Assembly: GCA_016867975.1 (NCBI GenBank)
Contig: VGIC01000004.1
Location: 11,252 to 75,251, forward strand
From: Betaproteobacteria bacterium
GTDB lineage: Bacteria > Pseudomonadota > Gammaproteobacteria > Burkholderiales > Methylophilaceae
DNA length: 64,000 nt
Direction of reading: 5' to 3'
Of this stretch, positions 30,476 through 58,745 are shown one piece after another. The notes under the pieces are model-generated. The model saw nothing but the letters and a program-made list of their open reading frames with translations. It was not told where the DNA came from and searched no databases. The position numbers and the translations under genes are program-made. Every line of letters begins with the position of its first letter. Positions within the stretch are counted from its first letter, which is position 1.

Positions 30476-30520
30476 CAAATCTTAAATTATCGTAACGATT
30501 GTTTGATAGGAAGTTTATTA

Positions 30521-30624
30521 AAAAATTAAAAGGCAAAGCAAAATCAAGGCGGCAAGGCGCAGAGCAGTACGTATTTGTACGGCAAGCCGAGCCAACGACG
30601 ATTTTGCGAAGCGTTTTAATTTTT
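30521..30624 (+). repeat. Palindromic element (AAGGCG core) directly before the iscU RBS
   Basis: 25-bp arms with 21/25 match; core CAAGGCGG-N6-GCAGAGCAGTACG-TATTT-GTACGGCAAG-N6-CAAC shared with 50391-50490. Confidence 0.7.
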
Positions 30625-30637
30625 AAGGAGTGTTGAA

Positions 30638-31061: not shown

Positions 31062-31385
31062 ATGGCAATCACACTGACACAAACTGCGGCTACCCGCGTA
31101 GAAAAATTCCTGGCGAACCGTGGCAAAGGCATTGGCCTTCGTCTAGGCGTTAAAACTACCGGCTGCTCCGGCATGGCCTATACGCTTGAGTTTGTAGATG
31201 AGATGCAGCCGGAGGACCTTTCATTTGAGAGCCATGGCGTAAAGGTGATTGTAGACCCCAAGAGTCTGGTTTACATCGATGGCACGGAGCTGGACTTTAC
31301 GAAAGAGGGTTTGAACGAAGGCTTTAAATTTAACAACCCGAATGTGAAAGATGAATGCGGCTGTGGCGAAAGTTTCACTGTATAA
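31062..31385 (+). CDS. iscA: A-type Fe-S carrier IscA
   Basis: TTGCSG and ECGCGESF motifs. Confidence 0.98.
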
Positions 31386-31504
31386 AATGCATATGCAAGC
31401 CACTGACTTTGTTGCGCGGTACTCAAAATCCTCATGTACTTCTAGTACATTCCGGCTTCTGCGTTCCGTGCGCCTCGTCATCAATCTTGCTTAAGCATTT
31501 TATA
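31381..31504 (-). repeat. Palindromic element (AAGGCG core, reverse orientation) between iscA and hscB
   Basis: 19-bp arms TATAAAATGCATATGCAAG / CTTGCTTAAGCATTTTATA (17/19) overlapping the iscA stop. Shares GCGCACGGAACGCAGAA and GAGTACCGCG with 35752-35894. Confidence 0.75.
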
Positions 31505-35751: not shown

Positions 35752-35894
35752 GGAAAGGCTGATTAAATCGGCGAGCGAGATAAAGTGCAAGGCGCACGGA
35801 ACGCAGAAACCGAGATAGTATGCGGTATACAGCGAGGTTGCGAGTACCGCGTAACGAAGCAATTTGCTCGCGTAGACATTTAATCAGTGTTTCC
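35752..35894. mobile_element. MITE-like element: GGAAA..CTGATTAAAT shell with AAGGCG core
   Basis: 17-bp TIRs (15/17) flanked by TTAA and TTAG; the right flank is the carbonic anhydrase stop. Core is homologous to 31381-31504 and 56344-56757. Confidence 0.75.
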
Positions 35895-38116: not shown

Positions 38117-38401
38117 GAGACCTTTGCACAAAGCATTTTTAACCTAAAAATCTATCAAGTTTGTCATTCCGGCGGAGGCCGGAATCCAGACAGGCTCCAT
38201 AGCCAACTAAAATAACTTTAGCAAGGGCGATTGTTAACTAAACTATAAAAACAATAGGTTATATTGATTTTTCCGACATTATTTTCACTAAAGTTACTAC
38301 TCTAAATGTCACCTTGCCTAGATTCCGGCCTCCGCCGGAATGACGGGTTTTTGATATTTTAGTTAAAAATTGAACCATTTTTTGTTTTGTGCAAAGGTCT
38401 C
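38117..38401. mobile_element. 285-bp nested-palindrome MITE with GAGACCTTTGCA ends and an inverted REP-like doublet
   Basis: Perfect 16-bp TIR GAGACCTTTGCACAAA; subterminal AT-rich IR; inner 27-bp IR GTCATTCCGGCGGAGGCCGGAATCCAG (38163-38189 vs 38318-38344, 26/27). Confidence 0.8.
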
Positions 38402-50351: not shown

Positions 50352-50390
50352 TTTTTTAAGTGTTTAATTTCAAAGGTTAAATTAACAAAA

Positions 50391-50490
50391 TTTCGTTTGC
50401 ATTCCTGCTCAGACAAGGCGGAGACACGCAGACAGTACGCATTGTACGGCAAGTGGCGACAACACCGTATGAGCGGGAATGAAAGCGTAA
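50391..50490 (+). repeat. Palindromic element (AAGGCG core) between prfB and lysS
   Basis: Arms CATTCCTGCTCA/TGAGCGGGAATG with imperfect extension; core CAAGGCGG-N6-GCAGACAGTACG-CATT-GTACGGCAAG-N6-CAAC. Confidence 0.7.
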
Positions 50491-55498: not shown

Positions 55499-56341
55499 TC
55501 AATTAAGCAACATCACTGCCTCAACGACCTTCAAAGCCTCTACCGTTGCTTTCACATCATGGACGCGTACAATTTTTGCGCCCTTCATCGCAGAAACAAC
55601 AGACGCTGCAATCCCTGCATGCAATCGCTGCTGTTCACCCCCCCCTGCTATCCTGCCCAAGACTGATTTACGCGACAACCCGACCAATAATGGGTAACCA
55701 ATATTCACCAAGCGATCCAAATGCTGGATCAAAGCTATGTTATGTTCTTTGGTTTTACCAAAACCGAAACCCGGATCCAGCAAGATACGATCAGCCGCGA
55801 TACCCTTTGCCACGGCGGCATCAGCTCGCCCACACAAGAACTGCTGCACTTCCAACACCACATCATGATAGGTGGGGTTCAGTTGCATCGTCTGTGGCGT
55901 CCCCTGCATGTGCATCAGACAAACACCCGCATCACTGTCAGCCACCACGTCTAGCGCACCTTCCTCTTGTAAAGCACGCACATCATTCACAATATCCGCA
56001 CCTGCTTGAATTGCTGCGCGCATCACTTCCGGCTTGTAAGTATCAATCGAGAGTGGAATCTGCGTCGTTGCGCTAAGCACCTCAATCACAGGAATAACGC
56101 GATCCAACTCTACTTGTAGCGGCACTGGTTCTGCACCTGGGCGTGTGGACTCACCACCAATATCAAGAATATCTGCGCCTTCTTCAATCAGTCGCAACGC
56201 ATGTGCAACAGCCAAATCCGTTGCAGCGTATTTTCCACCGTCAGAAAATGAGTCAGGCGTCACATTGACGATCCCCATTACGCGGGAGCGACTCAGATCA
56301 AGCTGATATCGGCCGCAGGAAAATATATGATTGCTAACCAT
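55499..56341 (-). CDS. folP: Dihydropteroate synthase
   Basis: [38 protein letters not shown] and RVHDV motifs; start placed at MVSNH. The 113-codon upstream extension lies in the MITE. Confidence 0.96.
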
Positions 56342-56343
56342 AT

Positions 56344-56757
56344 GAGACCTTTGCAAAAGTGCTTCTTGTGGATGAAGCGTACCAGTGATTGGCATATCCG
56401 TGGAATATATGCGCTGAAGCGCATTATTCACACGCCAAAGGCGCACACCCGCACGGGGCATCACCAACCTCGCTAGATGCTGAAGCATTAAGTCGGTTGT
56501 GACGGAACGCATAAACCGAGAAAACCAACGCAGTGTTTCGGCGTAGGCTAACTCACGAAGCGATGTTAAGCGTAGCGGCCGAAGCCATAGTATGCGGTAT
56601 ACAGCGAGGTTGCGAATTTGTTTTTGGCAGGCATTTGAGCGTAGCTCAAAGCTCGCACAACGTAGTTGCGGTGTAGGCATAACCTTAAGGTTATGCCGTA
56701 ACCAAAAAACCGCGTAACGCAGTGATTCGCCATAGGAAGTAGTTTTGCAAAGGTCTC
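56344..56757. mobile_element. 414-bp composite MITE with GAGACCTTTGCAAAA ends between ftsH and folP
   Basis: Perfect 15-bp TIRs; four collinear blocks match the 35752-35894 core, separated by hairpin-rich inserts including GTAG-GCATAACC-TTAA-GGTTATGC. Confidence 0.8.
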
Positions 56758-56846
56758 CATACGCAGATTATACTGAATTAGCGTCGTGACATGAAAAAGG
56801 GCTGGAAATTTCCAGTCCACATCGCACTATTGTACTCCGTAAAATA

Positions 56847-58745
56847 TTAGGTCTTTGCAGTCGGTTGCGGAGCATGACTTGCACCCGAGTCAGTCGACTC
56901 GGCATCCCTGCCCGCAGAAGGCGGTGTTTTGCTTTGTTTGGGCTTGGGTTCACGCACAGGCAAACCTGCCATGATGTCATTGATCTGATCCGCATCAATG
57001 GTCTCATACTCCATCAATGCCGCGGTCATCGCCTCAACCTTGTCACGATTGCCTTCAAGTAGTTTGCGTGCAAGGGCATACTGCTCATCCAGAATCTTGC
57101 GGATCTCTGCGTCAACTTTCTGTTGTGTCGCTTCCGAAACTGTTCTTGAGCTCATACTACCAAAGAAGGAATCCTGCTCACTGCTCGCATACACCATCGT
57201 CCCCAAGATATCGCTCATACCATATCGTGTCACCATATCGCGCGCCAATTTGGTTGCCCGTTCAAAATCATTAGAAGCCCCTGTCGACATCTGCCCCATG
57301 AAAATCTCCTCAGCGATACGCCCGCCGAACAAAATGGAAATTTCTTCCAGCATCTTGTCCTTGTAATTGCTGATACGATCAAATTCTGGCAACTGCCATG
57401 TCAAACCCAATGCCCAGCCGCGCGGCATGATGGTAACTTTGTGTACAGGATCAGCTTTCGGCAATAATTTGGCCACCACCGCATGACCGGACTCGTGATA
57501 AGCCGTATTGCGGCGCTCCTCTTCACGCATCACCATCGATTTACGCTCTGGCCCCATGAATATCTTGTCTTTAGCATCTTCAAAGTCTTGCATATCCACC
57601 GTGCGCTTATTCCGTCGCGCAGCAAATAACGCAGCCTCATTCACTAAGTTTGCCAGATCTGCACCGCTAAATCCTGGCGTACCGCGTGCCAGCACATCTG
57701 CTTTGACGTTCGGGTCAATCGGCACTTTACGCATATGAACCAGTAAGATTTGTTCGCGACCTTTGATATCCGGCAAACCAACCATGACCTGGCGATCAAA
57801 GCGCCCAGGGCGCAGCAAGGCCTTATCCAGCACATCTGCACGATTAGTCGCTGCAATCACGATCACACCAGAGTTAGCCTCGAAGCCGTCCATCTCCACC
57901 AGCATCTGGTTCAATGTTTGTTCACGCTCATCATTACCGCCACCAGTTCCCGCCCCACGGCTACGACCCACAGCATCAATCTCATCAATAAAAATGATGC
58001 ATGGGGAGTTCTTTTTCGCCGTTTCGAACATGTCGCGTACGCGGGACGCGCCCACGCCAACAAACATCTCAACGAAATCAGATCCTGAAATCGTGAAAAA
58101 TGGCACTTTCGCCTCCCCTGCAATGGCACGCGCCAGCAAGGTTTTGCCAGTGCCAGGAGGACCAACCATCAACACCCCACGCGGGATGCGCCCGCCAAGT
58201 TTTTGGAATTTACCTGGATCCCGCAAAAACTCAACCAGTTCAAACACCTCCTCTTTAGCTTCATCACAGCCTGCAACGTCGGCAAATGTCGTCTGATTAT
58301 TTCCCTCATCCAGTTGACGCGCTTTGCTCTTACCAAATGAGAACGGGCCTCCCCCTTTGCCGCCACCTTGCATCTGGCGCATAAAGAATATCCAGACCCC
58401 AATTAGCAGAATCATCGGGAACCACGAAACGAAGAGGCTCATCAAGAACGATTGCTCTTCTTCTGGTTTCGATTCAACGGTCACATTATATTTCAGCAGA
58501 TCAGACACCAGCCATGGATCAGAAGGTGCATAGGTGGTAAACCGCTTACCCTCCTGAGTCGATCCTCGCAACACGCGACCATCAATCTGCACTTTGGCAA
58601 TACGGCCATCTTTGACATCCTGAATGAATTGGGAATAAACAATCTGACCATCCGTGCCACTCTTTACACCAGTCAGATTAAAGACCGCCATCAGCACCAT
58701 GGCAATGGCAAGCCAAATCGCGATATTCTTAACAACGTTGTTCAA
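56847..58745 (-). CDS. ftsH: ATP-dependent zinc metalloprotease FtsH
   Basis: Two TM helices, [23 protein letters not shown] and HESGH zinc motif. Confidence 0.98.

Follow-up and report, generated by a model that had tools for sequence, protein, structure and literature searches.

The 414 nt at positions 56344 to 56757 of the window (the whole 64,000-nt stretch of DNA that was analysed) are very probably one copy of a non-autonomous DNA transposon (MITE), built on a modular chassis with IS5-type ends, to which modules were added and then reshuffled (Table 1). The copy is bounded by terminal inverted repeats of 28 nt (GAGACCTTTGCAAAAG... / ...CTTTTGCAAAGGTCTC) that are 86% complementary, with the outer 15 nt perfect, and it is associated with a target-site duplication and with an empty site in relatives. 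It is short, has counterparts at about 60 loci and carries no transposase gene, and a full-length IS with the same type of ends exists in N. polysaccharea. Only short ORFs without any family signal cross it. The genome is represented by a 1.56-Mb assembly of 44 contigs (47.7% G+C, 92.7% complete), in which pieces of the element were found at 57 loci by short-word BLAST or at 63 loci in a module-based catalogue. Every copy with both arms recognised lies between flanking long ORFs (0 within one). The family is genus-wide in Methylotenera; no match to the element was found in phage and plasmid collections.

Table 1. Features of the 414-nt copy, its insertion site and the short copy, in window coordinates.
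Feature	Position	Strand	Remarks
folP (dihydropteroate synthase)	55499..56341	-	start codon is the insertion site
Target-site duplication, left copy CATAT	56339..56343	.	contains the folP start codon (ATG, minus strand, 56341-56339)
Shell B left arm	56344..56378	+	terminal inverted repeat GAGACCTTTGCAAAA makes up its first 15 nt
Optional module X	56379..56437	+	CCAGTGATTGG mini-hairpin, then long hairpin with TGAA loop
Core block a, AAGGCGCAC	56438..56446	+	internal-loop segment of the chassis
Insert 1 (module I1)	56447..56503	+	two hairpins, at the loop/helix H6 boundary
Core block b, GGAACGCATAAACCGAGA	56504..56521	+	5' strands of helices H6-H8
Insert 2 (module I2)	56522..56587	+	GTAG-tagged hairpins, between helix H8 and the apex hairpin
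Core block c	56588..56615	+	apex hairpin GTAT-GCGGT-ATAC and 3' strand of H8
Insert 3 (modules I3a and I3b)	56616..56708	+	three hairpins; replaces the short-form GT (3' strand of H7)
Core block d, ACCGCGTAACGCAGT	56709..56723	+	
Shell B right arm	56724..56757	+	ends in terminal inverted repeat TTTTGCAAAGGTCTC
Target-site duplication, right copy CATAC	56758..56762	.	matches the left copy 4/5
Original extended -10 box of folP, AGTATAAT	56767..56774	-	now split from folP by the element
ftsH	56847-58745	-	other flank of the 414-nt stretch; glmM follows folP
Bare 143-bp short copy	35752..35894	+	shell A arms, GGAAAGGCTGATTAAAT...

The element has inserted at the start codon of folP with a 5-bp duplication, the two copies of which are imperfect (CATAT/CATAC). 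The empty site was found in 14 related Methylotenera genomes, where ftsH, a terminator, AGTATAAT-N5-6-ATG and folP follow one another with nothing between. A closer inspection of the interval in these relatives reveals the ftsH stop, a terminator-like hairpin (AAAAGGGCTAG..CTAGCCCTTTTT) and then TTnAGTATAAT-N5-6-ATG of folP. The window keeps both the terminator-like hairpin and AGTATAAT, and the insertion point of the element coincides with the ATG, itself part of the duplicated pentamer. The element is selfish DNA. By inserting on the start codon of folP, an essential folate gene, and replacing the promoter-proximal context, it constitutes a natural experiment in MITE-driven expression rewiring. 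The terminal repeat places an element-borne, Shine-Dalgarno-like AAAGG 6 nt before the true folP ATG.

Several further features of this locus were observed. With the element in place, the box is 415 nt away from folP in this genome. From the duplicated ATG beside the old -10 box, a frame of 64 codons (METFAKLLPMANHC...) extends into the element as far as a stop at 56566 (56566-56760, minus strand), and the folP frame itself is open for 113 codons upstream into the element, with an ATG at 56680 (56341-56680, minus strand). A terminator-like hairpin with a T-run (ACTGCGTTACGCGGT TTTTTGG) lies inside the element in the folP direction (56700-56723, minus strand), and this predicted structure could attenuate read-through into folP. 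In the alignment of the 14 relatives, the AGTATAAT box stands just 5-6 nt upstream of the folP ATG, directly after the ftsH terminator hairpin. Such a short distance between box and ATG suggests a leaderless or near-leaderless folP mRNA in Methylotenera.

The sequence-only reading had described the 414 nt as an expanded form of a core at 35.8 kb, split into four collinear blocks by three structured inserts. Sequence comparison bore this alignment out, as the blocks at 35789-35856 recur in the same order at 56438-56719 and all matches are exactly as claimed: 9/9 nt (56438-56446 vs 35789-35797), 17/18 nt (56504-56521 vs 35798-35815), 28/28 nt (56588-56615 vs 35816-35843) and 11/11 nt (56709-56719 vs 35846-35856). 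Blocks that are contiguous in the short copy are separated here by gaps of 57, 66 and 93 nt. The 28-mer of block c occurs at two sites only in the window (those just given), which excludes chance. The complementarity over 10 nt between insert 1 (CAACCTCGCT, 56465-56474) and block c (AGCGAGGTTG, 56603-56612) was likewise recovered, as were the two perfect hairpins of insert 3, one a palindrome at 56676-56697 and the other, TTTGAGC-GTA-GCTCAAA, read directly in the sequence. Parts of the description had to be amended, however. What had been treated as a mere core is a complete 143-bp element, of which a second shell-A copy exists at C12:36752-36894 (93% identical). The inserts are not limited to three, since the left arm is separated from block a by a fourth, likewise optional module (X) that had been missed, and insert 3 does not lie simply between blocks but replaces the dinucleotide GT of the short form.

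Across the genome, the conserved core consists of the same blocks a (AAGGCGCAC), b, c and d, enclosed by at least four unrelated pairs of arms, here termed shells. The arm sequences are GGAAAGGCTGATTAAAT in shell A, GAGACCTTTGCAAAAG in shell B (the arm type of the 414-nt copy), GGGCRCTTCTATAAATRC in shell C and GGAAATACGGAATAAGT in shell D. Bare copies measure 143-144 bp in shells A, B and D and 141 bp in the sole bare shell-C copy, and the four bare forms align with just a 1-3-column indel, in the right arm. The resulting chassis comprises two arms of ~35-37 nt, the outer 15-19 nt of which are the terminal inverted repeats, and an asymmetric core of ~70 nt. Its consensus fold is one long imperfect hairpin, the helices of which covary in both arms and core (48:97 GC/CG, 50:95 AT/TA/GC, 59:87 CG/GC, 68:80 GC/AT/TA, 71:77 TA/CG); the apex stem of block c also covaries in relatives (T:A vs C:G). 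Target duplications of shells A-D span 3, 4 and 5 bp. Exact 4-bp duplications flank shell C (ATTA three times, TTTA twice, and TAAA, ATAA, CTTA and AACA), for which 51 end matches were found, exact 5-bp duplications flank shell B in this genome (CATCA, CTTCA, TTTCT), and the duplication of shell A is ~3 bp (YTA). This bacterial MITE is a case of layered modular evolution, in which a single chassis combines with exchangeable, transposase-specific ends and with hairpins that are optional but occupy fixed junctions.

Shell-B ends were also observed around other contents. At 38117-38401 of the window they surround wholly different cargo, a GTCATTCCGGC..GCCGGAATGAC doublet flanking an AT-rich spacer, and dRS3-like ATTCCCGCG..CGCGGGAAT cargo of 75-546 bp lies within shell B in N. 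dentiae and a Neisseria sp. Many shell-C right arms (e.g. C5:28585-28873, C9:18171-18574) carry an extra arm hairpin, GCAATCAGCGAAGCTGATGC, and optional hairpins are therefore not confined to the core.

The ends of the element resemble those of ISs of the IS5 family. An IS of this family from N. polysaccharea (1219 bp) has perfect 19-bp terminal repeats, GAGACCTTTGCAAAATTCC, and the shell B end begins with the same 15 nt as that repeat. A Methylotenera IS ending in GGGCACCTCTA(A/T)(A/T)AAT agrees with shell C at 16/18 positions. ISs with shell-C-like ends were located in another Methylotenera genome (G031, locus L056) and at L069, a 1.5-kb contig assigned to a different bin. The relative G005 contains a multicopy IS with such ends, present at contig ends only, whose body was recovered from the 1.5-kb contig. 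The transposases of the shell-B-type and shell-C-type ISs both match NCBIfam NF033581 (IS5 family, transpos_IS5_4) as well as Pfam DUF772 and DDE_Tnp_1, and share 28% mutual identity. The likeness of the element to IS5-family ISs thus lies in its ends and in a short duplication (4-5 bp), whereas it has no transposase gene and shows no relation to these ISs in its interior; by sequence comparison, the MITE interior is not derived from the subterminal sequence of the N. polysaccharea IS.

Because the shell B ends are identical to IS5-family ends, the element has most likely moved in trans by means of an IS5-type transposase, and trans-mobilisation of this kind is the best-supported mechanism. 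A search of this genome found neither of the end-matching ISs, the shell-B type having been seen only in Neisseria, and no DDE_Tnp_1 (PF01609) or IS5-family transposase gene was found in the assembly. Mobilisation here would therefore be either historical or reliant on an unassembled copy. IS5-family ISs found through PF01609 in relatives were considered as a source and set aside, since they lack the shell ends. A second Neisseria IS type was sought for comparison with classical Correia ends, and only another copy of the same IS was recovered.

Placed on the consensus fold, each module lies at or beside an internal loop and none falls within the arms of the 414-nt copy. Module X separates helix H5 from the AAGGCG loop, I1 lies where the loop meets H6, I2 at the junction of H8 with the apex hairpin, and I3 on the 3' strand in place of the GT of H7. 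At these inter-helix junctions the accessory modules leave the chassis hairpin intact. There is differential occurrence of the modules among copies. The intermediates whose existence the sequence-only reading had proposed as a check all exist, and 13 of the 16 possible combinations of X, I1, I2 and I3 were seen among 45 core-bearing loci. Fourteen of these loci are bare, and two (the 414-nt copy and the shell-C copy C19:29882-30214) contain all four modules. The 414-nt copy is the largest and most richly decorated of the family. X is present or absent independently of the other modules, and I3a and I3b are found separately in other copies.

Moreover, modules occur outside this family. I1 is found with sharp boundaries in a different composite repeat at 5 loci (L113-L117) from four relatives, and X in an unrelated hairpin context in one relative, where it occupies the loop of a GTCATTCCGAC hairpin (L118). 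The mini-hairpin that opens both X and I1 (ACCC-N4-GGGCAT type) is also an insert in an N. shayeganii copy. There is paralogy among the modules, X+a and I1+b sharing one architecture and I2 and I3b likewise, and the paralogous stems differ by fully compensated swaps (e.g. ATGCGC/GCGCAT vs ACCAGC/GCTGGT).

The modules are probably additions to an ancestrally bare chassis. The bare form is common to shells and families, and the 414-nt query returned only one weak match (E 7e-4) from 24 genomes of other genera of the same order, which makes module gain the more parsimonious history. Individual modules are marked by neither a target duplication nor a terminal repeat, and their description as insertions therefore rests on outgroup parsimony. 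Of the two explanations originally put forward, serial gain at fixed hotspots, which correspond to the inter-helix junctions of the fold, fits best, and precise deletion is real but secondary.

The converse history, in which a large structured element came first and the 143-bp and intermediate copies arose from it by repeated precise deletion of hairpins, is unlikely. Deletion clearly occurs, given that copies are joined at direct repeats (b-d at AACGCAG, I2-d at CAACGCAGTG and I2-I3b at GGYGTAGGC), and hairpins flanked by short repeats are classic substrates for replication slippage. However, the bare 143-bp form is gap-free across four shells and the distant Neisseriaceae, the 24 genomes are nearly devoid of matches to the long form, and just two of the 45 core-bearing loci have all four modules. 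The insert boundaries show merely 1-2 nt of microhomology, insert 3 replaces GT and does not lie between repeats, and I1 and X exist in unrelated elements.

Neither of the original explanations included a third process, gene conversion between copies, which explains the mosaic pattern of identity. Positions 162-335 of the element are 99.4% identical to C11:34915-35088, yet the left arm of that copy is only 88% identical and it lacks I1, and over positions 48-380 there is 95.8% identity to the shell-C copy. Taken together with the junction sequences, this pattern suggests that modules have been redistributed via the shared core, by gene conversion or by recombination, and lost by slippage between internal direct repeats. 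Under module gain, a bare chassis would acquire hairpin modules at helix junctions, the ~60 copies would then exchange them via gene conversion or recombination, and slippage would remove them again. A shell-D element in one relative (G017, C1:2254500-2255050, L121) carries I2+c at 96% identity to that of this genome. FolP is 77% identical between the two genomes, and the repeat is thus far better conserved than coding sequence, which would imply either horizontal spread or strong constraint.

We compared the element with known families of small repeats. The core motif CGCAGACAGTAC-N5-GTACGG is common to real Correia copies and many Betaproteobacteria. Scanning public genomes for this motif recovered the Neisseria Correia elements together with copies in Eikenella, Kingella, Bergeriella, Vogesella, Rivihabitans and Cupriavidus, and also in Mycoavidus, Accumulibacter, Methylobacillus, Nitrosomonadales and others. 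The aligned motif copies have AAGGCG-s1-CGCAGA-CAGTAC-N5-GTACGG-CAAG-s1'-CAACGnCG in common, with s1 and s1' covarying and the outer arms genus-specific. Judged by its sequence, the core of the 414-nt element appears to be a derived version of the Correia core in which motif and helix order have been kept. The exact motif is found elsewhere in the window, at 30558 and 50427, in two copies that read CGCAGA(G)CAGTAC-N5-6-GTACGG. With these included, three further small hairpin elements with a Correia-type core and other arms were noticed in the window, at 30500-30625, 50375-50490 and 31385-31500 (minus strand); two have the exact CGCAGA-CAGTAC-N5-GTACGG and the third has a different apex hairpin, ATGTACTAGAAGTACAT.

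Like Correia (CREE/NEMIS), the element is a small non-coding hairpin MITE that is intergenic and of high copy number, and it appears to keep, in derived form, the directional core AAGGCG..CGCAGA..[GTAY-N5-RTAC apex hairpin]..CAAG/CGAG..CAACGC. Both also occur as discrete size classes, long and short, an internal hairpin insert accounting for the difference. In Correia these classes are 104-108 and 153-157 bp (PMC2649163), and real long and short copies differ by a 50-nt central hairpin insert. This insert resembles the reverse complement of I1, with a score of 39 that was reached by 0 of 2000 shuffles. The element nevertheless differs from Correia in its arms (GAGACCTTTGCAAAAG...), which are unrelated to the 26-bp Correia repeat (TATAGYGGATTAA...), in its duplication of 5, 4 or 3 bp (5 bp in shell B) as opposed to TA, and in the extra core segments AACCGAGA and TTGCGAGTACCGCG. 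It has four insertion points where Correia has one, with the I1-like hairpin elsewhere and in the opposite orientation, its host is Methylotenera, and its ends match IS5-family ISs. The Correia repeat has been stated to occur only in Neisseria, its mobilisation mechanism being undetermined and no mobilising enzyme known (PMC2649163). We searched the literature for MITEs of Methylotenera and for Correia-like elements in hosts other than Neisseria and found no report of either.

A related element occurs in the Neisseriaceae. Counts of the terminal repeat GAGACCTTTGCAAAA are 171+174 for N. shayeganii, 89+84 in a Kingella MAG, 118+103 in N. dentiae, 55+56 in N. weixii and 44+56 in a Cardiobacteriaceae MAG. 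There are more than 170 copies of the chassis in N. shayeganii and ~85 in the Kingella MAG, in which the end pairs, among the matches listed, are mostly spaced exactly 143 bp apart. The 143-bp elements of Kingella, N. shayeganii and N. dentiae align almost gap-free with those of Methylotenera. These GAGACCTTTGCAAAA-ended MITEs (Kingella, N. shayeganii, N. dentiae, N. weixii) share with them the terminal repeat, the length, the core architecture and a homologous arm extension (TGTGGATGMAG), along with the 5-bp duplication, for which AGGCA, AGACC, AGCCT, AAGCC and AGGCT were seen in Kingella and N. shayeganii. In contrast to the Methylotenera copies, which have X, I1, I2 and I3 and a diverged core, they are nearly all bare; one N. 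shayeganii copy contains two other small hairpin inserts. No name for this 143-bp MITE was found in the literature searched.

Optional internal units between fixed ends, with stable hairpins, are also characteristic of BOX from Streptococcus pneumoniae and of ERIC with inserts, and the element shares this modular build. It has, however, no sequence relation to either, and BOX varies by tandem copies of one unit, whereas the element has four different modules at four fixed junctions. Both BOX and ERIC are listed in PMC3184786.

A broader proposal, which we regard as tentative and rather less than even in probability, is that the conserved core shared with Correia is a portable chassis that has repeatedly taken the 15-19-nt ends of different IS5-family transposases, the accessory hairpins being tiny mobile units in their own right, a second layer that homes to helix junctions. 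The core would then persist by aiding the transposition of very short elements, for example by bending or extruding so that the ends meet. If this were true, classical Neisseria Correia elements should also be substrates of IS5-family transposases. To our knowledge, the enzyme that mobilises Correia has been unknown since 1988, and a Correia-type core in Methylotenera and many Betaproteobacteria, with two chassis variants bearing IS5-family ends, points to a candidate enzyme class.

It has also to be considered whether the 414 nt form an RNA gene, encoding a large structured non-coding product whose core is conserved and whose expansion hairpins are lineage-specific; a discrete RNA of this kind had been raised by the sequence-only reading. 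The fold is very stable (plus strand -170 kcal/mol, z -8.4; minus strand -154, z -6.8), helices covary, the inserts are placed at junctions like expansion segments, and loop sequences are asymmetric between strands (GTAG 6:0, CGNAG 8:0). Such a gene is nonetheless highly improbable, as the stretch has transposon ends and a target duplication at its boundaries, the site is empty in relatives, and ~60 copies exist with shuffled module content. A comparison with Rfam 15 found nothing at the gathering score, nor with the threshold relaxed to E<=5, and the better-folding strand is antisense to the ftsH-folP operon. There is no preference of orientation relative to flanking genes (15 co-oriented, 17 anti) and no bias relative to replication or GC skew (28:32), while the covariation of the arms is expected of any inverted-repeat transposon. 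Mismatches in the arms comprise 81 G.T vs 25 A.C, and the consensus arms contain G.T and no A.C. Together with the loop asymmetry, the G.T-only consensus hints at a single-strand constraint, which plain double-strand cut-and-paste does not require. An ongoing constraint was rejected, because the 81:25 excess falls to 21:17 when distinct private changes are counted; the bias thus stems from few ancestral positions and not from ongoing selection. We conclude that the fold is a property of mobile DNA and does not in itself indicate an RNA gene. Transcription of the element may have incidental RNA effects.

A REP/BIME-type array of GTAG-tagged palindromes spread by a RAYT on single-stranded DNA is just as implausible: six GTAG and eight CGNAG motifs lie on one strand, several directly before stems (e.g. 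GTAG-GCATAACC..GGTTATGCC), and the genome has a Y1_Tnp (IS200-like/RAYT-like) gene, but that gene is a pseudogene (in-frame TAG and frameshift) flanked by a different repeat, GGGGTCAGACACG, in 12 copies, the hairpins lack BIME-like alternation of orientation and a replication-strand bias, and terminal inverted repeats with 4-5-bp duplications are not products of Y1 transposition. The alternating tagged palindromes without duplication and the intact RAYT with the same REPs that define such arrays were thus not found, and a MITE remains the preferred reading. The Y1_Tnp pseudogene lies at C28:1140-1920, and its inverted GGGGTCAGACACGATTA flanks make up a small family of their own, with ~12 copies on C3, C19, C23, C28 and C31.
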